Source: Gemmatimonadales bacterium (lineage in GTDB: Bacteria; Gemmatimonadota; Gemmatimonadetes; Gemmatimonadales; GWC2-71-9). Taken from it: a DNA stretch of 64,000 nt. Within the stretch, counting starts at the first letter, position 1; each line of letters begins with the position of its first letter. The notes under the pieces are model-generated. The model searched no databases, was not told where the DNA came from, and was given only the letters and a program-made list of their open reading frames with translations. The DNA lies in the NCBI GenBank assembly GCA_044229445.1, contig JBGASX010000015.1, positions 3,753 through 67,752 on the forward strand, given 5' to 3'. The position numbers and the translations under genes are program-made. Positions 50,629-64,000 of this stretch are shown here, one piece after another.

Positions 50629-52073
50629 TGCTGGTCCTCGACCACGATCGCGCCGGCGGCTACTGGGGTGCCGTCTACGTCTTCACCGCGGTGAAGGGGC
50701 TGCAGGTCGTCATCGACGGGCCGGTCGGTTGCGAGAACCTCCCTGTGACCTCGGTCCTGCATTACACCGACGGCCTGCCGCCCCACGAGCTGCCGATCGT
50801 CGTCACCGGCCTGGGCGAAGAGGAGCTGGGCCAGCGCGGGACCGAAGACAGCATGAAGCGGGCGCACCGCACGCTGGACCCGGAGCTGCCGTCGGTGGTC
50901 GTGACGGGAAGCATCGCGGAGATGATCGGCGGCGGCGTGACGCCCGAAGGCACCAACATCCAGCGCTTCCTGCCGCGGACGATCGACGAGGACCAGTGGC
51001 AGGCGGCCAACCGCGCGATGTTCTGGCTGTGGACCGAGTACGGGCTCAAGAAAGGGGTCCGTCCCGATCCGAAGCCGCGCGAGCCGGGCGCGCGTCCGCG
51101 GGTCAACATCATCGGCCCGGCGTACGGCGTGTTCAACATGCCGTCCGACCTCGCCGAGATGCGCCGCCTGGTCGAGGGGATCGGCGCCGAGGTCAATCTG
51201 GTCTTCCCCCTCGGCAGTCACCTCGCGGATGTCCCCCGGCTGGTGGATGCCGACGTGAATGTGGTCATGTACCGCGAGTTCGGCCGGATGCTGTGTGAGG
51301 CGCTCGACCGCCCCTACCTGCAGGCGCCGATCGGACTCCACTCGACCACCAGCTTCCTGCGCAAGCTGGGCGAGCTGCTGGGGCTGGACCCGGAGCCGTT
51401 CATCGAGCGGGAGAAGCACACCACGATCAAGCCCCTCTGGGATCTCTGGCGGAGCGTGACGCAGGACTTCTTCGCGACGGCCAGCTTCGGCATCGTCGCG
51501 AACGAGACGTATGCGCGCGGGGTGCGGCACTTCCTGGAAGACGAGCTGGGGCTGCCCTGCACGATGGCGGTGGCGCGGAAGCCCGGTGCCAAGACCGACA
51601 ACGCAGCGGTCCGTCAGGCGATCCGGGAGAAGACGCCGCTGATTCTCTTCGGCAGCTACAACGAGCGGATGTACCTGGCGGAGCTCGGACCACGGGCAAT
51701 GTACATCCCGGCGTCGTTCCCGGGCGCGATTATCCGGCGCCACACGGGGACGCCGTTCATGGGCTACTCGGGCGCGACCTACCTGGTGCAGGAGGTCTGC
51801 AACGCGCTCTTCGACGCGCTGTTTCACATCCTGCCGCTGGGCACGGACATGGACCGGGTCGAAGCGACCCCCGCCCGTCAGATCGCCAGTCTCCCCTGGA
51901 CCGACGATGCCAAGCGGTTGCTGGACGAGATGGTCGAGCAGCAGCCGGTGCTGGTCCGCATCTCGGCCGCGAAGCGGCTCCGGGACCGGGCCGAGCGGGA
52001 TGCGCGGGCGCGGGGCGACACCTGTGTGACGGCCGCCCACGTGGAAGGCGGGCTGGTCAACAGCGCCGGCTAG
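50628..52073 (+). CDS. bchZ: chlorophyllide a reductase subunit Z
   Basis: ORF 50529..52073 trimmed to ATG 50628, which overlaps the bchY stop by 1 nt (TGATG). N-terminus [40 protein letters not shown]. Confidence 0.93.
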
Positions 52074-52960
52074 CCGAGACCGTCCGCCGCGGCCCGGTCG
52101 AGAATGACGGTGGCGACGGCCGCGGGAAGCTCCTCGTGGAGCAGATGGCCGCCAGTGAGCGACTGAAGCGTGCAGCGGGGCATGCGGCGCGCGATGGTAC
52201 GGAGGAGTCGGCGCGGAATCCAGGCGTCGTCCGTGCCGGTGACGAGGAGGACGGGGCAGGGGACCCGTGGAAGGTCCCGCTCCAGGTCGGTCAGCGACCA
52301 CTCGGTCATCATGGTCAGCACATCGTGGTTGTGCTGCACCGAGCGGAAGAAGGTCCGGTAGAACTCGCGCTGCTCGGCGCTGAGGGCCGAGCCGGTAGAG
52401 CGGAGCAGCGAGTCGACAATCGCGGGGCGTGCCGCCAGTGAGGCGGCGGTCCGGGCGACGAAGGCCGAGGTGGCGAGGCGGTGTACGAACGGCGCGAAGA
52501 GCAGCCGGTACGCGGCCGGAGGGGGCACCAGGGCGGGGTTGAGCCCGATCAGCAGTCGTGGCGCGATGGCCCCATCAATCGCCATCCGGAGCGCGACAGC
52601 GGCCCCGGCCGAGTGGCCGACGACGAGGGTGGGTGATGCATCGAGGGTGGTCAGCAGGCGACCGAGCGCCGCGGCCATCCCGGGGAGGGTGAGGAGTTCG
52701 GCGCGCGGGGCCGGGGTGAAGCCATGCCCAGGGAGGTCCGGCGCGATGACGCGGAACCGGGTGGCGAGCCGGGGCAGCAGGCCGGCCCACGAGTGGGTGG
52801 CGCTGCCGGTTCCATGCAGCAGGAGGAGGTCGGGCCCGCGGCCGGCACGCTGCACATGCCACCGCAGACCGTCACAGTCGACGAAGCGGCTCGACTCACG
52901 ATTCGGCCAGAGCGGGCGCAGGTCAGCCCAAGCTGGAGCAGATGCAGGAGTAGGTGTCAT
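52070..52960 (-). CDS. bchO: alpha/beta hydrolase, BchO-like (Mg-chelatase accessory protein)
   Basis: ORF 52070..53038 trimmed to ATG 52960. Contains [51 protein letters not shown] and the nucleophile elbow GHSAGA. It is convergent with bchZ, and the two stop codons share CTAG (52070-52073). Confidence 0.8.
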
Positions 52961-53049
52961 GTCTCTTCGAGGCCGTTGCCTGCAAGGGCCCGGCCACCCC
53001 GGCCGCGGGGGAGTCCGCGGTGATTCTTCACTACCCACAGGGGGTTCGT

Positions 53050-54668: not shown

Positions 54669-56084
54669 ATGCTTGAATACCAGAACATCTTCACTCGGGT
54701 ACAGGTCCGTGCCGCGCCGGATCTGGGCCTGCCCATCTCGACCAAATCGGGCAGCCGCCTCATCAAGCCGTTCTTCAGCAAGTGGATCGGCAAGATCGGC
54801 GACGCGCAGATCGGCCCGATCTACCTGGGAACGACCGGCCTCCTGTCACTGCTGTTCGGCTTCATGGCGATCGAGATCATTGGTCTCAATTTCCTGAAGC
54901 AGGTGAACTGGAGCCCCGTCGAGTTCCTGCGCCGCCTGCCGTGGCTCACGCTCGAGCCGCCGGCGCCGGTGTACGGGCTGCACATCCCGCCGCTCGCCAA
55001 GGGTGGCTGGTATCTCATCGCGGGTGGCCTGCTCACCTTCTCGATCATCCTCTGGTGGGTCCGCACCTACCGCCGGGCGCGCGCGCTCGGCCTGGGGACG
55101 CACCTCGCCTGGGCGTTCGCGTCGGCGATCTTCCTCTACCTGAGCTTCTTCTTCCAGCCGCTGCTCGTCGGCAGCTGGAGCGAGATGGTGCCGTTCGGCA
55201 TCTTCGCCCATCTCGACTGGACCTCGGCGTTCTCGATCCGGTACGGGAACCTCTACTACAACCCGTTCCACGCCCTGTCGATCGCCTTTCTGTACGGCTC
55301 CGCCGTGCTCTTCGCCATGCACGGCGCCACGATCCTCGCGGTGAGCCGCGTCGGTGGTGAACGGGAAATCGAGCAGATCACCGACCGCGGGACCGCGGCG
55401 GAACGGGCCGCGCTCTTCTGGCGCTGGACGATGGGCTGGAACGCCACGATGGAGTCGATCCATCGCTGGGCCTGGTGGTTCGCCGTGCTGACCACCTTCA
55501 CCGGTGGCATCGGCATCCTGCTGACCGGCACGGTGGTCGACAACTGGTACCTGTGGGGTCAGAAGCACGGACTGGTCGCCGATTATCCGGCGCAGAACCC
55601 GAACCTGACGCCCGCCGATCTCGAGAAGCTCCGGGGCCGCTATTCGGGAACCCAGCCGGACAGCTTCCCGAGCTACCAGCCGGTGGCGCCGGTGGTGGTA
55701 CCCGTGGTGACCTCGACGGAGATCATCTCCGCGATCGGCAAGACCGGGCGCATCGCGACCGAGGCGATCCTGTTCGAGGTGGGGAGCAACGCGATCCTGC
55801 CGGAGTCGAAGCCGCAGCTGGCCGAAATCGGCCGCGCGCTGTCCGACCAGCCGAAGCTCGCGCTGGTCATCGAAGGCCACACCGACAGCATGGGGGTCGC
55901 CGACAGCAACCAGGTGCTCTCCGAGCGGCGCGCTAACGCGGTCCGGGACTACCTGGTGACGAACTTCAAGGTGGCGCCGGCCCGGCTGACCGCCGTCGGC
56001 TACGGGTCCTCTCGCCCCATCGCGGCGAATGACACTCCTGAAGGACGCGCGCACAACCGGCGTGTCGAACTGGTGAAGCCATGA
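54669..56084 (+). CDS. pufM: photosynthetic reaction centre subunit M fused in frame to a C-terminal OmpA-like peptidoglycan-binding domain
   Basis: 471-aa uninterrupted ORF. Residues 1 to about 303 form a full M subunit ([13 protein letters not shown]...[24 protein letters not shown]...[10 protein letters not shown]...[17 protein letters not shown]). Residues about 304-366 are a Pro-rich linker. Residues about 367-471 read [22 protein letters not shown]...[31 protein letters not shown]...[26 protein letters not shown], which is OmpA_C-like. Confidence 0.95.
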
Positions 56085-57298
56085 CCAACGCATCTGGAAG
56101 GTTGGTACCCAGCTGGATCGCCCGCGGAGGCGCACTCGTCCTCGCGGTTGCCATCCTGACGCTCGGCGCGACGGGCTGCGAGATCGGCCGCAAATATTCG
56201 ACCCAGCGTGCCTACCGCGGCACCGGCATGGAGAACATCTATGACCGGACGGTCCTCGACGCGAAGGCCACCGCGGTCGCGGCGAAGATCCCGGCAACCC
56301 TCCCGGCGGCGCCGCCGCCAAGCGCGGGCCCGCTGCCGTGGCGGAATGTGCAGGTGCTCAACGACATCGGTGCGGCGGAATTCACCCGGACCATGCTGGC
56401 GATGAGCACCTGGGTGGCGGGCACGGGCAACTGTGCCTATTGCCACAACATCGCGGCGCCGTGGGACGATACCCTGCCGAACGGCAAGCCGATCTATACC
56501 AAGATCGTCGCGCGCCGGATGCTCCAGATGGTCAGGAACATCAATGGCAATTACGCCGGACACGTCGCCAATACCGGCGTGACCTGCTACACCTGCCATC
56601 TCGGCAAGCCGATCCCGAACGGAGTGTGGTTCTATACCGAACCGAATCAGCTCGAGCGCTATTTCCTCGATCGCGACGGCGTCCGGGTACAGTCACACGA
56701 AGTGCTGGCCAGCACCGCCAGCCTGACGAACCGCTCGTCGGCGAAGCAGGCGGAGTGGACGTACGCGCTGATGATCAAGCTGTCGTCGAGTCTCGGCGTG
56801 AGCTGCAACCACTGCCACAACAGCCGCGCCTTCTGGTCCTGGGAGCAGGCGCCGCCGCAGCGCGTGGTGGCCCTCCTCGCGGCCAACATGGTGCGCGATC
56901 TGAACCAGCATTACCTGGCGCCCCTGCAGCCCGTGTTCCCGGCGGTCCGGCTCGGCAAGATGGGTGATGCGCCGAAGCTCCAGTGCCTGACCTGCCACAA
57001 CGGGGCGTACAAGCCGCTGTACGCCTACCCGATGGTGAAGGACTATCCCGCGCTCTGGGGTCGTCCGGACTGGAATGGCACGCCGTTCCCGCGGATCCCG
57101 ACGGCCGAGGAAGAGGCCGCCGCGATCGCCCGGGCCAAGGCGGACAGCATCGCCGCGGCCAAGGCCGCGACGCAGCCGGCCGCACCTGCGGCTGCTCCCG
57201 CCGCCGCGCCGGCGCCCGCCGCCGGGGATAAGGCGAGCGGTGCCATGGGTGGGCAGGGTCCTGCGGGGAAGGACACCACTGCGAAGAAGAAGCCCTAG
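56081..57298 (+). CDS. pufC: reaction-centre tetrahaem cytochrome c subunit (lipoprotein)
   Basis: 405-aa ORF with an ATGA overlap on the pufM stop. Lipobox LTLGATGC. Four CxxCH motifs (CAYCH, CYTCH, CNHCH, CLTCH). Ala/Pro-rich C-terminal tail ending in KKKP. Confidence 0.93.
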
Positions 57299-57332
57299 CG
57301 CCGTCAGATACCGTCTGACCGCAGTGCGAGAT

Positions 57333-57362
57333 GCCCCGCGGCGGTTTCGTCGCGGGGCGTTT
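57333..57362 (+). terminator. hairpin after pufC (possible intrinsic terminator)
   Basis: GCCCCGCG-gcggtttcgt-CGCGGGGC forms an 8-bp GC stem followed by GTTT, 35 nt after the pufC stop. Confidence 0.45.
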
Positions 57363-57448
57363 CACGGGAACACCGGCCATCGGCCACAGGTATAACCAGC
57401 GGTTCGCGGTCCGCGCTGAAGCGGGCCGCACCGCCCGCCAGAAATGAG

Positions 57449-58099
57449 GTGGTGACCGTGACTGTACGTCGACTGCCAGTCTACATCCTCGCGGACGTCT
57501 CCGGCTCCATGCAGGGCACGCCGATCGAATCGGTGAAGTCAGGCATCAGCCAGCTCCACCGCGACCTGATGAGCGATCCCCAGGCCATCGAGAGCGCGTA
57601 CCTCTCGATCGTGACCTTTGCGAACACCGCAGAGCAGGTGGTGCCGCTGACGGAGGTGTCGCTCTTCAATCCCCCGAACCTGGTGGCGAGCGGTAACACC
57701 AATTTCGGCGACGCCCTCCGGCTGCTGCTCGAGTGCTTCGAGCACGAGATCGTACGGACGACCCCGGAACAGAAGGGGGACTGGAAGCCCCTCGTGTTCA
57801 TCCTGAGCGACGGGGCTCCGACCGACACCGCCTGGCCCGATTACGCCCAGCAGCTCCGCAATCGCCGGCCGGCCAACATCATCGCGGTGGCCTGTGGCGA
57901 CCAGGCGGATGTGAACTGCCTCAAGCAGGTGACGGAAGTCGTCATCCAGATGAAGGATCTGTCGCCCGATTCCTTCCGCGCCTTCTTCAAGTTCGTTTCG
58001 GCCTCGGTGCGCCAGACCAGCGCCAAGGTTGGCGCCCTCGCCGAGGGCGGTGCGATCACCCTGCCGCCGCCTCCGCCCGGCATCACGATCGTACCCTGA
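57449..58099 (+). CDS. TerY-type von Willebrand factor A domain protein
   Basis: 216-aa ORF. The start could be GTG 57449, 57452 or 57458 (GAGG at 57447-57450). Contains RRLPVYILADVSGSMQGTPIESV (MIDAS DxSGS), GNTNFGDAL, KGDWKPLVFILSDGAPTD and a C-terminal LPPPPPGITIVP. This matches the TerY-like vWA family as I know it. Confidence 0.85.
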   Translation: MVTVTVRRLPVYILADVSGSMQGTPIESVKSGISQLHRDLMSDPQAIESAYLSIVTFANTAEQVVPLTEVSLFNPPNLVASGNTNFGDALRLLLECFEHEIVRTTPEQKGDWKPLVFILSDGAPTDTAWPDYAQQLRNRRPANIIAVACGDQADVNCLKQVTEVVIQMKDLSPDSFRAFFKFVSASVRQTSAKVGALAEGGAITLPPPPPGITIVP

Positions 58100-58101
58100 A
58101 G

Positions 58102-59100
58102 GTGGATGCGAAGACCGTGCGACCGGAGCCAGCCACGTCCGAGGTGGAGCCGGGAGCGCTGCCCGCCGCGCCCGCCTGGCTCGATCGTGCGCCGGAGGGC
58201 CCCTGGTGTCCCCCGGAGCTCCGGGAGGCGCTTCCGTGGGCCGCTGCGGCGGATTACGCCGATCTCCGCACCGCGTTGCATCCGTGGCGCGCCGGGTGGA
58301 CCCTTGTCGGGGCCAGCCGGCGCGGTCGGCTGCATGCCCACCGCGGCGAATTCCGTGAAGATGCGTTCGGCATCGAGACGGGCGAGCAGTTCTTCCTTCT
58401 CGTGGCCGCGGACGGCGCGGGGTCGTGCCGCCTCAGCCGGATCGGCTCCGAGTGCGCCTGCCGGGCGGTCGTCCGGCGCCTCGGTGCCGTGCTGGCCGAT
58501 GTGGTGCCTCCTGCCATGGATTCTCCCGCTCTGCACCAGTGGCTTGCTGCGCTGCTCGCGCCCGCACTCTCGGCCGCGATCCAGGATGTGGCGGAACTGG
58601 CTCGTGCTTCCGGGATCGACCCCAGGGAGTTCCGTACCACGCTGCTCACCGCAGTCTGGTTCGCGTCCCCCGCCGGGGAGCTGCTCGCGGTTTCCCAGGT
58701 TGGCGATGGCTTCATCGCGGCTCGCCGGAGTGACGGGCGGGTGGAGCGGCTCGGCGCTGGTGACGTGAGCGAGTTCTCGGGAGAGGTCAGCTGCTTCGTA
58801 CCGGATGACGGGGCCTCGACCCGCGCGCAGGCGATCGCCGTGACCGACGGTGCCGATGTCACGGCCATCCTGCTCGGGACCGACGGGGTCGAGGATCCGT
58901 TTTATCCCATCGAGCGCCACGGTGCACTGCTCTACAGCCAGCTCGTCGGTGGCGTCTCCGAGCCCGCGCAACACTTCCAGCGCCAGGAATCCCAGGGGCC
59001 CGTCTTCGCGCCGGATGGGGACCAGCAGCTCGCCCGCTGGCTCGGCTTTGAGCGCCGGGGCGAGAACGACGATCGCACACTCGTGGCGGCCTGGCGGTGA
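58102..59100 (+). CDS. PP2C-family (PP2C_2-type) protein phosphatase
   Basis: ORF 57733..59100 trimmed to GTG 58102, 2 nt after the vWA stop (alternative GTG 58117). Contains RRGRLHAHRGEFREDAF, LLVAADGAGSC, VGDGFIAA and LLGTDGVEDPF. Confidence 0.75.
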   Translation: MDAKTVRPEPATSEVEPGALPAAPAWLDRAPEGPWCPPELREALPWAAAADYADLRTALHPWRAGWTLVGASRRGRLHAHRGEFREDAFGIETGEQFFLLVAADGAGSCRLSRIGSECACRAVVRRLGAVLADVVPPAMDSPALHQWLAALLAPALSAAIQDVAELARASGIDPREFRTTLLTAVWFASPAGELLAVSQVGDGFIAARRSDGRVERLGAGDVSEFSGEVSCFVPDDGASTRAQAIAVTDGADVTAILLGTDGVEDPFYPIERHGALLYSQLVGGVSEPAQHFQRQESQGPVFAPDGDQQLARWLGFERRGENDDRTLVAAWR

Positions 59101-59109
59101 GGTGAGCTC

Positions 59110-60540
59110 ATGCGATATCTCACCGCACGATTGACCGACGGGCAGACCGTGCAGTTCGAGGACCAGCCGATCAACTCCGGCGCGGAGAAGGTCGTGTTCT
59201 TCTCGCGCGATCGACGGCAGGTCGTGGGCTTCTTCTTCGGGCAGATGCGGGATCGGCTGGAACGGGTCGACCGGCTCAACAAGATCCTCACGAAGTACAA
59301 CCCCACGACGGACCGCCATGGCGGGTACTGGGCCCCGTACTTCTGCTGGCCCACCGGCATCATCGACGGCGACCGGGGCATCCCTCCCGAATTCCTCCGC
59401 GCCTACGGCCTGGTGTCACCGGCGCTCGGGGTGATCGCGCCGGTGTACCGTCCCTCGTTCTTCTTCCACGACCGGTTCGGGCACCGGCAGGAGAAGGAGG
59501 TGAAGTGGTTCACGGGGCGGAAGGCAAGCGCGCTGGTCCCGGAGCATGAGCGCGGCAACTTTCTCACCCGGCTGCAGATCTGCACCCGGCTTGCCCGCGC
59601 GGTGCGGCGGATGCATTTCGCCGGCCTGGCGCATGCCGATCTCTCGAACAAGAATGTGCTGATCGACCCGAAGAGCGGCGACGTCTGCGTCATCGACATC
59701 GACTCGCTCGTCGTTCCCGGGGTCGCGCCGCCGACGGTCCTCGGGACGCCAGGCTACATCGCGCCGGAGGTGCTCGGGCGCGGGGCGCAACCGTCGATCG
59801 CCACGGACAAGCATGCGCTCGCCGTCCTCATCTACCAGATCCTGCTCAATCGCCATCCGTTGCAGGGGAAGAAGGTGCACAGCACCCGGTCGGCCGAGGA
59901 GGATGAGCGGCTTTCCATGGGGAGCAAGGCTCTCTTCGTCGAGCATCCGACGGACCGCAGCAATCCCCCGGTGCTGCCGATCCGGGTTCCGATGTCGCGC
60001 CTCGGGCCGCACCTCGAACCACTCTTTCTCAAGACGTTCGTGCATGGGCTCCACACGCCCTCCCGGCGCGCCGATGCCGCGGAGTGGGAGATGGCGCTCT
60101 ATCGCACCCTGAACCTGCTGCACCCGACGCCCTCCGGCCGGGACTGGTTCGTCCTTGGTCCGGAGATGCCGAGGCAGTGCCCGACGACGGGAGAGCGAGT
60201 CCATCACCCGGTGCCGGTCGCGCGGTACTTCCGCGATCTGGATGGGCGGCTCGCCGACGAGCAGCAGTCGCTCGTCATCTTCCACAATCTCGTGCTGCAC
60301 GACTGGCACACCCGTCCCGGCGTCATCCCCGGGGAACATGCCGACCGCACGCCGCGCGGCTACTTCTCGCTCCATCAGGGGCGATGGTGGCTCGTGAACC
60401 TGCAGGAGGAGCCGATCGAGGTCCTCGGCGGCTCGGCCATCGCGCGCAACGCCGCGGTGGAGCTGAGCGCCGGCCTCGACCTGCGGATGCCAGGCACCGA
60501 GCAGCGGCGCGTGCTCCGCATCGGATTCCACCGGCCCTGA
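59110..60540 (+). CDS. atypical Ser/Thr protein kinase (TerY-triad type) with uncharacterised C-terminal domain
   Basis: 476-aa ORF with catalytic-loop-like LAHADLSNKNVLID, DID in place of DFG (VCVIDIDSLVV), GTPGYIAPEVL and DKHALAVLIYQILLNRHPL. The C-terminal 150 aa or so are not recognised. Confidence 0.75.
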   Translation: MRYLTARLTDGQTVQFEDQPINSGAEKVVFFSRDRRQVVGFFFGQMRDRLERVDRLNKILTKYNPTTDRHGGYWAPYFCWPTGIIDGDRGIPPEFLRAYGLVSPALGVIAPVYRPSFFFHDRFGHRQEKEVKWFTGRKASALVPEHERGNFLTRLQICTRLARAVRRMHFAGLAHADLSNKNVLIDPKSGDVCVIDIDSLVVPGVAPPTVLGTPGYIAPEVLGRGAQPSIATDKHALAVLIYQILLNRHPLQGKKVHSTRSAEEDERLSMGSKALFVEHPTDRSNPPVLPIRVPMSRLGPHLEPLFLKTFVHGLHTPSRRADAAEWEMALYRTLNLLHPTPSGRDWFVLGPEMPRQCPTTGERVHHPVPVARYFRDLDGRLADEQQSLVIFHNLVLHDWHTRPGVIPGEHADRTPRGYFSLHQGRWWLVNLQEEPIEVLGGSAIARNAAVELSAGLDLRMPGTEQRRVLRIGFHRP

Positions 60541-60541
60541 C

Positions 60542-61624
60542 ATGGCGACCGATCCCCGGCTCTCCGTCGCGCTCGGGCTCCGCCGGCTGGTCAGCCAGGG
60601 GGAATGGCCGACGGAGCACCTGGTCGCGTTCCAGAACCTGCTGCTCGATGAATGCGGCGGTGACACCCGGCCGCTGGTCATGCTGCTGATGCGAGCGGTG
60701 GAGCAGGGCATTGCGGAGGATATCGCGAGCCTCGAGCCTGCCGCGTGGGAGGAGCGGCGCCCGCAGTTCATCACCCGCATGACGGCGAATGCCTTCGTGC
60801 AGGGGGAAATGGCACGCTGGGCCGTGCATGCGTGGGCTTACGCGTTCGGCCTCATCGCCGCGCCGTGGGTGGCGGACCCTCCGGAACCGGTGCTGCCGCC
60901 GGCGGCGGATCCGGCCCTCGCGTCAGGCACGACGCAGCGCTGGAGTCCGCCATCGTCGAACTGGGCCGGGGGGACCGCCACGCGGTACGCTCCGCAGGCC
61001 CCGCGCCGCCGTTTCGGGCTCTATCTGGCGCCGACGTGGGTGCCGTCGGCCACGCCCCTCAGCCCCCAGGATCGCCGCCGCGACTGGATCGTGTTCGGTA
61101 TCGTCGTCGTAACCCTGGTCGCGCTCGCGGTTCCCGCGATGATCGTGGCGCGTCAGCGCGCGCCGCAGATGGCGATCGACGCGGCCGCGCTCACCGCCCA
61201 GATCCGCGCCAGCCAGCCGAAACCGCCGAAGCCGACCCCGATCAACGGGGAGTACTCCGGCGTCTACCGGGTGGAGCGGACGCTCGAGACGGTGACCGGT
61301 GACCCGTCGTGCATCGACGGCTCCGCTGCCGTCCACTGGCCGGTCCCCACGATCGAAACGATCGCCTACGACTCGACCAGCCGCACCTTTCAGTTCCTCT
61401 CCCGGCCGGAGGTGCGCGGGCGAGTGTCGCCGGAGGGGAACATGGAAGCGGGGCCGGTCTACGGGCGGAAGGACGGTACCGACTATGCCTTCTGGATGGC
61501 GGGACGATTCACCCCGGACGGCTTCGAGGCGCGGGCGCAGACCACCACTCGTACGGTGATCTCGTGGGTGACGGTGGAACGGTGCCGACTCACGGGTCGT
61601 CTCAGCGCGCACCGGGTGAAATAG
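60542..61624 (+). CDS. single-pass membrane protein, paralog 1 (unknown N-domain / TM / beta-rich C-domain)
   Basis: 360-aa ORF that starts 1 nt after the kinase stop. N-domain: LVAFQNLLLDECGGDTRPLVMLLMRAVEQGIAEDI...WAVHAWAYAFGLI. TM helix: WIVFGIVVVTLVALAVPAMIV. Confidence 0.6.
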   Translation: MATDPRLSVALGLRRLVSQGEWPTEHLVAFQNLLLDECGGDTRPLVMLLMRAVEQGIAEDIASLEPAAWEERRPQFITRMTANAFVQGEMARWAVHAWAYAFGLIAAPWVADPPEPVLPPAADPALASGTTQRWSPPSSNWAGGTATRYAPQAPRRRFGLYLAPTWVPSATPLSPQDRRRDWIVFGIVVVTLVALAVPAMIVARQRAPQMAIDAAALTAQIRASQPKPPKPTPINGEYSGVYRVERTLETVTGDPSCIDGSAAVHWPVPTIETIAYDSTSRTFQFLSRPEVRGRVSPEGNMEAGPVYGRKDGTDYAFWMAGRFTPDGFEARAQTTTRTVISWVTVERCRLTGRLSAHRVK

Positions 61625-61628
61625 CGCG

Positions 61629-63131
61629 ATGAGCGTCGCGCTGATGCCGAAGGTGCGCGTCGCGTTGCGCGCGCTGGTCCAGGATCCGGCGTCCTGGCCC
61701 GTCGCCAGTCAGCTGGTGCTGCGGAATCTGCTGCTCGATGCATGCGGTGGTGATGCCCGGCCCCTGATCGCGCTGCTGGTGCGTGCCGCCGAATTCGGCA
61801 TCCCCGACCGGCTGCTGGAGGCGGGCCGTGGCCCCGGCGCGTGGGAGCGAGTTCGAGGCGGTCTCACGGTGACGCTCGTCGCCGATGGCTTTCTGCAGCA
61901 GGAGTGGGCCGTCTGGGCGGTGGAGACCTGGGCCTATGGTCTGGGTGTCATCGAGCAGGAGCAGCTGCAGGTGGGCGTCGAGGTGCCGAGGCCCGCGCCC
62001 GTTCCGGTCGAACCCGGCCGCGTCGCTCCTACAAAGCGGTCGGCGCCACGACCCTCACCCGGCACGGCCGCTTCGTCACCCCCGGCCGCACGCCGAACAT
62101 GGGCGCAGTCCGCGGCGTCCCGGCCGGGCGCCCCGCTTCCGCCGATTCCCCCATTCGCGATCTCCCGACGCGGCAAGGTACTGATGCTGGTAGGGACGCT
62201 GGCGCTCGCGGTGCCGGTGCTCTCCATCGGCCGGATGCTGCGGGAGCGGCGGGCGGCGCCGTCGGATCCCCCACCGGCGGCTGCGGCGGACTCCGCCACA
62301 ACGACTCAACCGGCACTCACGCACAGTGAGGCGGCAAGCGGGACGCTGCCACGAGCGGGTATCCCCTCCCTGACCATGGGGGCACTGCCTGCGCCGAAGT
62401 CGCCCGAAGAGGTCCGGCGCGTGGTGCCACCGACGCGCGCCGGGGTCGGCGTCGATCCGACCAAGTACCCGCCGGCCTATACCACCTACACCGCGGCACC
62501 GCTCGACCGGATCCTGCTGCGCGGTGGACGCGAGCTCACGGGGCGGGTCGAAGTCGTCCGCGCGTCCACCGTCCAGTTCCGCGATGGAGAGTCCGGGTTG
62601 CGCTACGAGTTTCCGAAACCGGACATCGTCGAGATCACGACGGAGTTCGGCACCAAGGTCCGCTTCGAGCCGGATGGCACGCCGAGCAACCAGCGCGGAA
62701 CGGATCGGGGCTTCCTTCCTGGTGCGCTGACCGGGGTCTTCGACGTGCGCTACGGGACACCGACGGTGCAGGGCAGCAGGGAGTGCAAGGGGCTCTGGGC
62801 GAGCGTGCCGGGCGCGGATCGTGTCCGGGTCGAGCACCGGGCAGGTGCCGATACCGTCACGATGACCTTTGTCGGGGGAGGAAAGTTCACGGCCGTGGTG
62901 GACAACGCCGGCCGCTTCGCGACGAGCGTGGTGATCGTGCCGGACCAGGCCTACACCAGCTCGGCCATCACCACGCGACTCGACGGCCGCTTCCGGCCGA
63001 AGGGCTTTGATGCGGTCGTGCACATTCTTGCGTATCGGCGGTCGGCGTCGGGCGGCGAGAACGACGTCGCCTGCCGCTCCGACATTCCCGCCACCGGTGA
63101 ATCGACGCCCTCCGGGGCCGGCACCCGCTAG
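61629..63131 (+). CDS. single-pass membrane protein, paralog 2 (same N-domain / TM / larger beta-rich C-region)
   Basis: 500-aa ORF. N-domain: LVLRNLLLDACGGDARPLIALLVRAAEFGIPDRL...WAVETWAYGLGVI. TM helix: VLMLVGTLALAVPVLSI. The C-terminal GRFRPKGFDAVVHILAYRR parallels GRFTPDGFEARAQTTTRT in paralog 1. Confidence 0.6.
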   Translation: MSVALMPKVRVALRALVQDPASWPVASQLVLRNLLLDACGGDARPLIALLVRAAEFGIPDRLLEAGRGPGAWERVRGGLTVTLVADGFLQQEWAVWAVETWAYGLGVIEQEQLQVGVEVPRPAPVPVEPGRVAPTKRSAPRPSPGTAASSPPAARRTWAQSAASRPGAPLPPIPPFAISRRGKVLMLVGTLALAVPVLSIGRMLRERRAAPSDPPPAAAADSATTTQPALTHSEAASGTLPRAGIPSLTMGALPAPKSPEEVRRVVPPTRAGVGVDPTKYPPAYTTYTAAPLDRILLRGGRELTGRVEVVRASTVQFRDGESGLRYEFPKPDIVEITTEFGTKVRFEPDGTPSNQRGTDRGFLPGALTGVFDVRYGTPTVQGSRECKGLWASVPGADRVRVEHRAGADTVTMTFVGGGKFTAVVDNAGRFATSVVIVPDQAYTSSAITTRLDGRFRPKGFDAVVHILAYRRSASGGENDVACRSDIPATGESTPSGAGTR

Positions 63132-63616
63132 GGAGCCGCCTTCTCCTCCGCGAAGAGCTGCTCGAACGACGCCACCTGGGTCGGGCCGAACGAATTCACG
63201 GCGATGTGCATGCCCGTGGTCGGATCGTCGAGTGTGATCTTGCCATTCTGCCAGCGCGTCAGGGCGAACGGTGTCTCGGGCGCGACCTTGGCAATGCTCC
63301 GCTTGTAGGCGATCCCGCGCAGTGCGCCAAACAGGAAGCCGTTCCCGTCCTGCGTCAGGTGCACGATGTCCCGCCCGGTGTTGACGTCGAGCACCGTGAG
63401 GCTGCCATCCTGCTCGGTCGTGAAGCGGATCGCGCGCTCCACCATCGGGACAGAGACCGCCTCGTTCGAGGCGCCGACCCCATAGACTCGGGCACTCACC
63501 GCGATGGTATAGGCAAGCACCGCAAGGATCGCGGCGCCGATCAGTGGCAGCCTTGGCACCTTGATCGTGGAATCGGGGGAGGTCCCCGGTTCCGGCTCGA
63601 CGAAGATCTCGGTCAC
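63128..63616 (-). CDS. puhC: photosynthetic complex assembly protein PuhC
   Basis: 162-aa ORF with one TM helix (LIGAAILAVLAYTIAV), followed by VERAIRFTTEQDGSLTVLDVNTGRDIV...NGFLFGALRGIAYKRS, which is PuhC-like. Its stop shares CTAG with the convergent paralog-2 stop (63128-63131). Confidence 0.8.
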   Translation of the reverse strand: MTEIFVEPEPGTSPDSTIKVPRLPLIGAAILAVLAYTIAVSARVYGVGASNEAVSVPMVERAIRFTTEQDGSLTVLDVNTGRDIVHLTQDGNGFLFGALRGIAYKRSIAKVAPETPFALTRWQNGKITLDDPTTGMHIAVNSFGPTQVASFEQLFAEEKAAP

Positions 63617-64000
63617 GATGTCGCCGCCTTGTGTGCCGTGGACAGGGAACCATTCACGCGAATCGCCGGTGCCGACGGCGCGGCCGGCGCACTCGTGATC
63701 GGACCCGCCGTGGCGGCCGCCTCCCGGACGATCCGCGCGACTTCGGCGGTGTCGGTCAGCCCCCGCAGCATCGGCTCGGGCCAGCGCAGGTGCCAGGGCC
63801 GCACATGCGGCCAGAGGTGGATGAACCCCAGGCGGTCCGGCGGCTGGATCGCGAAGGAGATCTGCCCCGTGCCGTCCCCGAATTCACGGGCCGACGCCGC
63901 ATTCACCAGGTGGAACGGAATGTTGATCGTGGTCGGCAGGACCACGCCGACTCGCATCACCACCCGGCGATCGGTGATGGCGTAGATCGTGGCCCGTGCC
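63613..64000 (-). CDS. puhB: photosynthetic complex assembly protein PuhB (5' part beyond the right window edge)
   Basis: The reverse-strand frame is open to the window edge: ...ARATIYAITDRRVVMRVGVVLPTTINIPFHLVNAA.... This is the PH-like core typical of PuhB. Its stop overlaps the puhC start by 4 nt. Confidence 0.75.
   Translation of the reverse strand, partial: ARATIYAITDRRVVMRVGVVLPTTINIPFHLVNAASAREFGDGTGQISFAIQPPDRLGFIHLWPHVRPWHLRWPEPMLRGLTDTAEVARIVREAAATAGPITSAPAAPSAPAIRVNGSLSTAHKAATS

Follow-up and report, generated by a model that had tools for sequence, protein, structure and literature searches.

What is a set of genes for reversible protein phosphorylation doing in the middle of a photosynthesis gene cluster (PGC)? 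The question is raised by a 64,000-nucleotide stretch of DNA from a Gemmatimonadales bacterium (GWC2-71-9; assembly GCA_044229445.1, contig JBGASX010000015.1, positions 3,753 to 67,752 of the forward strand), here called the window, whose own numbering is used throughout. Between its pufC and the convergent puhC, the ORF (open reading frame) listing has five ORFs on the + strand (57449–63131) for a vWA protein, a PP2C phosphatase, a kinase and two membrane proteins, membrane partners 1 and 2; together they are referred to as the cassette. Phototrophic Gemmatimonadota provide the textbook example of an entire photosynthesis cluster having moved between phyla, and control of such a cluster by its host is what is at issue. 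‘Hypothetical genes’ between puf and puh of Gemmatimonas have been published before (PMC7844134, PMC8547001, PMC9426454). The split cluster was treated as a distinct trait, found in three of nine group-2 metagenome-assembled genomes (MAGs) and absent from wastewater PGCs (PMC8547001), and the region between puh and pufBALMC was described as variable (PMC9426454). While the position of the insert was known, its identity as a TerY-P-type phospho-signalling operon with receptor-like partners is new, and a literature search found no paper that names the PGC insert as a TerY-P triad or analyzes its membrane proteins. With a confidence somewhat better than even, the cassette is considered to be an accessory operon that arose in Gemmatimonadaceae and serves Ser/Thr phospho-signalling across the membrane.

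On grounds of homology the first three genes are a TerY-P triad in reduced copy. The product of the vWA gene is a soluble protein that matches the Pfam VWA family (PF00092, E 1.4e-10; PF13519 also matched) and has an intact metal-ion-dependent adhesion site (MIDAS) motif of DVSGS, T and D (DVSGS at residues 16–20, SGNTNF, LSDG). A preliminary description of the window had called this a TerY-type vWA gene at 57449–58099, and was right about the motif but probably not about the start, since initiation at the GTG at 57458 gives 213 residues, as in most orthologues, and has a GAGG 8 nucleotides upstream. The PP2C gene (58102–59100) does begin 2 nucleotides past the vWA gene, and encodes a short-form PP2C_2 phosphatase (PF13672, E 2.5e-34) in which the metal-binding motifs ED, DGAGS, GDG, TDG and NDD are all retained. 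The catalytic domain of the kinase, residues 1–336 (59110–60117), matches Pkinase at E 2.2e-14. The AlphaFold2 model has a full kinase fold (pLDDT, or predicted local distance difference test score, of 80.5), and Foldseek places it with GSK3, PknB and Aurora at E values of about 1e-7. The features for which the kinase had been called atypical, a HADLSNKN catalytic loop (59632–59655) and DID (59695–59703) instead of DFG, are both there, as is APE at 59761–59769, and K27, H175, D177, N182, D196 and A218-P219-E220 are invariant in 23 orthologues. Judged by these residues, the protein has the hallmarks of a Hanks-type kinase: the Asp and Asn of HxDxxxxN, the DFG-equivalent Asp, APE and the N-lobe Lys. 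The exact sequence of the window kinase had no record in a look-up. With the VWA, PP2C_2 and Pkinase calls all supported by Pfam, the three products are demonstrated, at the level of sequence, to be homologues of the TerY-P triad that are catalytically intact.

The kinase ends in a confidently modeled all-beta domain (residues 337–476, pLDDT >90; 60118–60540, a range that includes the stop codon) that found no sequence match in Pfam or in a PDB profile search. Before the beta domain is a degenerate zinc ribbon of which Cys357 alone is kept, and no Cys of this segment is invariant among the 23 orthologues. With respect to a possible OB fold, the Foldseek search with the whole kinase model gave kinase matches only, and the C-terminal 140 residues are all-beta.

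The triad, with criteria taken from Anantharaman et al. 2012 as described in passages of PMC11090510, is directly homologous to the archetypal ter-locus genes, which bears out the assignment made in the preliminary description. By tblastn against plasmids, the vWA protein is 45–48% identical at 88% coverage to the TerY-type VWA proteins that adjoin TerD on ter plasmids, the kinase is 37–40% identical over 98% of its length to ter-plasmid kinases, and homologues of both are present on more than 2,300 enterobacterial plasmids. In the IncHI2 plasmid pEC-IMP (NC_012555) the locus comprises terZABCD, then ATP-grasp, phosphoribosyltransferase (PRTase) and terW genes, and then genes for VWA, TerD, VWA, a TerY-C VWA, PP2C and kinase. 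The cassette shares with it the order vWA, PP2C, kinase, a MIDAS vWA protein of about 212 residues (45% identical), a PP2C_2-type phosphatase and a kinase with the same Pfam footprint, the Pkinase C-lobe plus Kdo; in pairwise alignment the two kinases are 39% identical (E 2e-107), and the alignment extends through the C-terminal domain. The differences are of several kinds. pEC-IMP has three vWA genes where the cassette has one, and a TerY_C match, found in the plasmid control, is lacking in the cassette. The cassette phosphatase is 29% identical (E 6e-23) to the C-terminal 273 residues of the 545-residue plasmid enzyme and lacks its N-terminal region of about 270 residues. The plasmid kinase has a CxxxxC...CPYC sequence that aligns with the segment in which the window kinase keeps only Cys357. 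Instead of TerD/TerZABCDE, PRTase and ATP-grasp neighbors, the cassette has puf and puh, and unlike the plasmid locus it has two dedicated single-pass membrane partners following the kinase. In Dysgonomonas a homologous kinase gene is followed by HAD and PRTase genes, a Ter-associated context.

TerY-P kinases are also described in passages of PMC11090510 as bearing a zinc ribbon, and an OB fold is given there for the free-standing defence system of Gao et al. 2020. The combination of vWA, PP2C and Ser/Thr kinase is common to the cassette, the system of Gao et al. and the TerY-P modules of type II and III-A CoCoNuTs. As far as those passages describe them, however, the kinases of the latter two are equipped with an OB fold or with a zinc ribbon that is intact, and they occur in defence contexts, while the cassette is set apart by a degenerate ribbon, a photosynthesis-cluster context and receptor-like membrane partners. 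PADLOC matched the kinase with generic models only and had no match for the vWA or PP2C proteins; as the canonical ter-plasmid triad and a cyanobacterial triad were equally unmatched, this negative is uninformative.

Membrane partner 1 (360 residues; 60542–61624) and membrane partner 2 (500 residues; 61629–63131) are tandem paralogues, as had been proposed. They have in common an N-terminal domain of 105 residues (44% identity, E 2e-22), each has one hydrophobic span at residues 183–201, and each has exactly three Cys, one in a CGGD motif of the N-domain and two in the C-terminal part. Neither has a Pfam match. In partner 1 the N-domain (residues 1–106, 60542–60859) is followed by a Pro/Ala/Arg-rich linker, the transmembrane span (61088–61144) and a predicted periplasmic domain with Cys at 257 and 348. 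In the AlphaFold2 model of partner 2 the N-domain is a six-helix bundle (residues 1–108), after which come a disordered Pro/Ala/Arg-rich linker, the span (62175–62231) and two extracytoplasmic beta-barrels, a small one at residues 293–346 and a larger one at 367–492, whose Cys386 and Cys482 are invariant in the alignment of orthologues. Since there is no signal peptide and the Cys pair is conserved, the N-terminus of the partners is likely inside and the C-terminus periplasmic. Avidin-like, FABP-/lipocalin-like and Hfq-like barrels and PsbO were considered as the fold of partner 2 and set aside (E 4e-3 to 0.1, with poor TM-scores), the PsbO matches being generic barrel similarity. The idea that the partners are the RC-S and RC-U reaction-centre subunits of Gemmatimonas phototrophica was also discarded, as no PDB sequence match was found at E<=1 and the sizes do not fit.

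The family to which the partners belong is small; a profile of partner 2 retrieved 254 cluster representatives among 1.84 billion proteins, and in some members the same module of N-domain and transmembrane span is fused to Sel1 repeats or Lcl_C. On an unrelated contig of 61% GC (L165:436-11299) a vWA–PP2C–kinase triad is followed by four to five N-domain proteins, the extracytoplasmic parts of which are 13 Sel1 repeats, Lcl_C or FGE-sulfatase domains. In Verrucomicrobiota a GYF/FGE-sulfatase protein comes after the orthologous kinase. A constant cytoplasmic N-domain joined to variable outward-facing domains is the architecture of a receptor family, and these models and neighborhoods establish the partners as a recurring add-on of triads, single-pass proteins with different, predicted disulfide-containing, extracytoplasmic beta-domains. 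An 841-residue protein (P0249) that looked like a ‘Rosetta stone’ fusion of kinase and partner was rejected as a frameshift artefact of its contig (L164, ENA contig_49563), a long-read contig in which pufL, pufC and the vWA, PP2C and kinase genes are each split across frames.

The favored reading can be given a mechanism. The membrane partners would be receptor or adaptor subunits whose periplasmic domains sense a ligand or the state of the envelope. Their N-domains, and perhaps their Pro/Ser/Thr/Arg-rich linkers, would dock the soluble kinase or be phosphorylated by it, and the PP2C would reset the phosphorylation state. The MIDAS vWA protein might read that state, or itself be switched, through metal-dependent binding. 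Pairs of a Hanks kinase and a PP2C of the PknB/PstP kind couple reversible Ser/Thr phosphorylation to an extracytoplasmic sensing domain. PknB combines sensor and kinase in one polypeptide, whereas the cassette has a soluble kinase, and its presumed sensors are separate proteins with a cytoplasmic domain of their own. The location in the PGC would go back to one ancient insertion where an operon boundary was permissive, after which the cassette was co-inherited and repeatedly lost, with no obligatory role in the photosystem.

The arrangement of the locus was correctly described at the outset: five co-directional, almost gap-free genes, with intergenic distances of 2, 9, 1 and 4 nucleotides in order. 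Upstream on the + strand are pufL, pufM and pufC, the last of which (56081–57298; PF02276, E 2e-92; NF040706, E 3.6e-95) encodes the reaction-centre cytochrome, is the terminal gene of the crtF-bchCXYZ-pufBALMC superoperon and forms the upstream boundary of the cassette. The 150-nucleotide spacer between pufC and the vWA gene (57299–57448, +) is highly structured, with three hairpins, a fold of −82.4 kcal/mol and a z-score of −5.8; none of 200 shuffles was equally stable. Its main hairpin, noted earlier at 57333–57362, has a GC stem of 16–17 base pairs at about 57327–57363, after which there is only GUUUCA, and it is probably, on the strength of the predicted fold, a 3′ stabilizer or partial terminator of the puf transcript. 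A consensus scan of the region revealed no sigma-70-like promoter, though the consensus is uninformative for this phylum. Downstream, puhC (63128–63616, −; TIGR03054, E 9.8e-38) overlaps membrane partner 2 by 4 nucleotides at their stop codons (63128–63131), and so there are two convergent transcription units without spacer or terminator between them; the counterpart gap in G. phototrophica is 85 bp. Next to puhC is puhB (63613–64000, −), truncated by the end of the window, which corresponds in position and sequence to the gene upstream of puhC in three metagenomic loci (L081, L099, L101) and to the ‘PH domain’ PuhB of G. phototrophica. GC content at third codon positions is 0.82–0.89 in the cassette genes and 0.81–0.92 in neighboring photosynthesis genes, consistent with the codon bias first reported, and the overall GC of the cassette fits its neighborhood too. 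The flanks of the cassette have no integrase, no repeats and no other defence genes.

For the presence of the cassette at this site the preliminary description had offered a phosphorylation switch acting on photosystem assembly, or alternatively an insertion by which the puf and puh modules are split. The first, in its fuller form, has the cassette recruited as the host's post-translational regulator of a horizontally acquired photosystem, phosphorylating reaction-centre, antenna or assembly proteins (PuhB, PuhC, LhaA) upon light or a periplasmic redox signal, and it is now regarded as unlikely. Distribution bears on it both ways. A kinase-profile scan of one genome per species yielded 80 loci, and 21 Gemmatimonadaceae species genomes (L002–L017, L019, L021, L033, L036, L037), with G. 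phototrophica among them, have pufLMC, vWA, PP2C, kinase, one or two partners and convergent puhC. In the reverse test, with metagenomic loci picked by PufC alone, the cassette directly follows pufC at 16 Gemmatimonadota-type loci. Such retention of one position favors a switch, as does vWA conservation that equals that of PufL (79–84% identity among PGC-linked orthologues). Against it, five loci (L081, L099, L100, L101, L110) have pufC abutting puhC, with gaps of 188–329 bp where measured, and one of them, L081, at 188 bp, is the sister of the window lineage. About eight others (L088/L089, L104–L109, L112) have different genes after pufC and no cassette. In all, on a count of 16 loci with it and about 10 without, the cassette is missing at about 40% of Gemmatimonadota-type PufC loci and was found at none of the 46 proteobacterial-type loci sampled (L113, L115, L116, L118–L160; L114 and L117 are Gemmatimonadota-type and outside this set). 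Unlike the core puf, puh and bch genes, then, it is not present wherever the cluster is, and it is, to judge by gene content, dispensable for the photosystem in relatives. Seven other Gemmatimonadaceae (L022–L027, L030) also have a paralogous cassette, with a single partner gene, in a conserved neighborhood of DUF4349 and PAS hybrid histidine kinase genes upstream and a cupredoxin gene downstream; there are no photosynthesis genes within 10 kb of these copies, a further point against a dedicated switch.

The phylogeny of the kinase shows where the cassette came from. In a neighbor-joining tree Gemmatimonadaceae kinases form a clade with a bootstrap of 100, within which the non-PGC clade has 100 and the PGC-linked clade 71; those of Verrucomicrobiota come next, and triads of other phyla have several vWA paralogues and a long PP2C. 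As the PGC-linked kinases cluster with others of Gemmatimonadaceae, the cassette is of host-lineage origin and not from a proteobacterial donor cluster. Host-type kinases, along with the absence from the 46 proteobacterial-type loci, make an insertion the better supported of the two original alternatives. In a tree of PufL, PufM and PufC combined, cassette-less lineages are sisters of cassette-bearing ones (the window with L081, bootstrap 100; L088/L089 with L090, 99), and the kinase and PufLMC trees agree on deep branches and on pairs such as L003/L007. The simplest history that these sequences suggest is that the cassette was inserted once, where the two operons converge, then diverged together with puf and was lost several times; the co-divergence also counts in favor of a photosystem switch. 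Kinases of the PGC-linked species genomes are 59–73% identical to that of the window (a comparison without G. phototrophica itself). The inserts in the PGCs of G. phototrophica AP64 and Gemmatimonas groenlandica TET16 (GEMMAAP_RS06550–RS06570), in NCBI annotation VWA, PP2C, Ser/Thr kinase and two hypothetical proteins, are like the cassette in their five genes, gene order and place between pufC and puhC. The window lineage branches more deeply than these two species, and its partners have 360 and 500 residues as compared with 445 and 604.

Some loci depart from this arrangement. In three (L088:5196-9203, L104, L108) pufC is followed by unlike cargo, such as a 1,335-residue protein, and another cargo is an ArsR-like regulator with MBL-fold/rhodanese and TauE-like genes; such variety agrees with a junction that serves as a variable landing site. 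In a Gemmatimonadota MAG (L005:9343-11413) the vWA gene abuts the kinase gene, leaving no room for PP2C, and downstream are ABC permease genes, with no partner genes or puhC there; the locus may represent a copy in decay at the cluster edge. An alpha/beta-hydrolase gene (52070–53038, −) is located between bchZ and pufBA, a position that G. phototrophica (RS06605) shares with the majority of Gemmatimonadota loci, and in L004, L098 and L102 it is relocated between pufC and the vWA gene.

Published RNA-seq of G. phototrophica in light versus dark, for time points of 2 h and 8 h with either 10% or 21% O2 (PMC11406998, Table S1), allows the orthologous genes, RS06550–RS06570 between puhC (RS06545) and pufC (RS06575), to be followed. 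All five rise in all four contrasts, with log2 fold changes of +0.30 to +0.91, mostly at a false discovery rate below 0.02, whereas at 2 h in light pufLMC fall by 0.5 to 1.2 log2 units and other puh and bch genes fall also (PMC11406998). Mean log2 counts per million are 7.8–8.5 for the cassette as against about 9.6 for pufLMC (PMC11406998). The cassette is thus expressed as one unit with its own regulation and a mild, less than 2-fold, light induction; co-regulation with puf and puh does not hold. Another transcriptome paper, on calcium response, does not mention the cassette genes. For a photosystem switch, light induction of all five genes is favorable, as is the minimal transcriptional control of photosynthesis genes reported for G. 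phototrophica (PMC11406998), which leaves room for post-translational control. The small amplitude and the opposite direction at 2 h are unfavorable, and with regulation that differs from that of puf, puh and bch and dispensability in relatives, the switch on photosystem assembly is left with little support. A bolder version, in which a TerY-P-derived switch with two periplasm-facing receptors has been domesticated as the post-translational controller of the acquired photosystem, is slightly more doubtful still.

The next contender, more doubtful than either form of photosystem control, is that the cassette is an anti-phage defence system of TerY-P type lodged by chance at the operon junction. 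The statement in the preliminary description that the role of the triad had never been established experimentally is outdated; according to passages in PMC7699616 and PMC11090510, a TerY-P system was shown by Gao et al. 2020 to act in defence against T7-like phages. Homology of the triad to TerY-P fits, and so does its patchy occurrence and repeated loss, a pattern typical for genes of defence. Set against this are the long vertical co-inheritance at one locus, the lack of flanking integrase, repeats or defence genes and the stable neighborhood of the non-PGC copies across seven species. Moreover, parts directed at nucleic acid are lacking, since the zinc ribbon is not intact and an OB fold was not identified, and there are instead receptor-like membrane proteins with periplasmic domains. 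Least probable of all, and largely overlapping with the favored explanation from which it differs only in denying a functional tie to phototrophy, is a neutral passenger with a job unrelated to photosynthesis or phage, for instance in signalling of metal or envelope stress, a role put forward for Ter systems, at a junction that tolerates insertions: it can draw on the differing numbers of unrelated genes in the variable puf–puh region (PMC9426454), on the other cargo after pufC in L088 and L104–L109, on the related cassettes outside photosynthesis clusters and on the original link of the triad to metal-stress loci (passages of PMC11090510, citing Anantharaman 2012), yet neutrality alone explains neither the light induction nor the exact synteny kept while the hydrolase gene moved in L004, L098 and L102.

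An accessory operon for transmembrane phospho-signalling is the reading that these comparisons leave in front, and a number of points weigh against it. No substrate, output domain or ligand has been identified for the cassette, and the proposed receptor role of the partners is drawn from architecture and gene neighborhood. The model of partner 2 has an overall pLDDT of 62, with 70–87 within domains, and its Foldseek search against PDB gave no significant fold match (best E 4e-3). The neighbor-joining bootstrap for the PGC-linked kinases as a monophyletic group is only 71%, and since absence of the cassette was judged at PufC loci, the genomes concerned could carry it elsewhere. That the vWA protein is as conserved as PufL counts here too, and persistence beside pufC over deep divergence, together with light induction, is compatible with a photosystem-related function. 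The anti-phage role demonstrated for TerY-P relatives, as passages of PMC7699616 and PMC11090510 report it, is also to be kept in mind.

Two features of the reaction-centre genes upstream are of separate interest. The PufM of the window (54669–56084, +) has at residues 368–464 of its C-terminal part an OmpA-like peptidoglycan-binding domain (PF00691, E 7.6e-24). Full-length matches to this fusion are present in L003, L004, L098 and L102, and largely in L081, while most other Gemmatimonadota PufM end at about 75% of the length of the window protein. The domain would be periplasmic and could, judging from its family, tether the reaction centre to the cell wall; no report of a PufM–OmpA fusion was found in the searchable literature. 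PufC has at residues ~340–405 (57100–57298) an Ala/Pro-rich low-complexity tail that lies outside the PufC family models.

An insert that has been called ‘hypothetical’ can now be named, and so a signalling system becomes testable in cultured strains. Any link to the photosystem, the role of TerY-P triads beyond plasmid ter loci and defence islands, and the binding partner of the N-domain are each open to experiment. If the cassette proves unrelated to photosynthesis, the convergent junction of puf and puh will stand documented as a long-lived landing site for foreign cargo. If instead it is a domesticated controller, it would supply the regulation missing from transcription of the transferred cluster, the TerY-P family would gain a physiological function other than defence for the first time, and a new cytoplasmic domain for receptor coupling would be defined.

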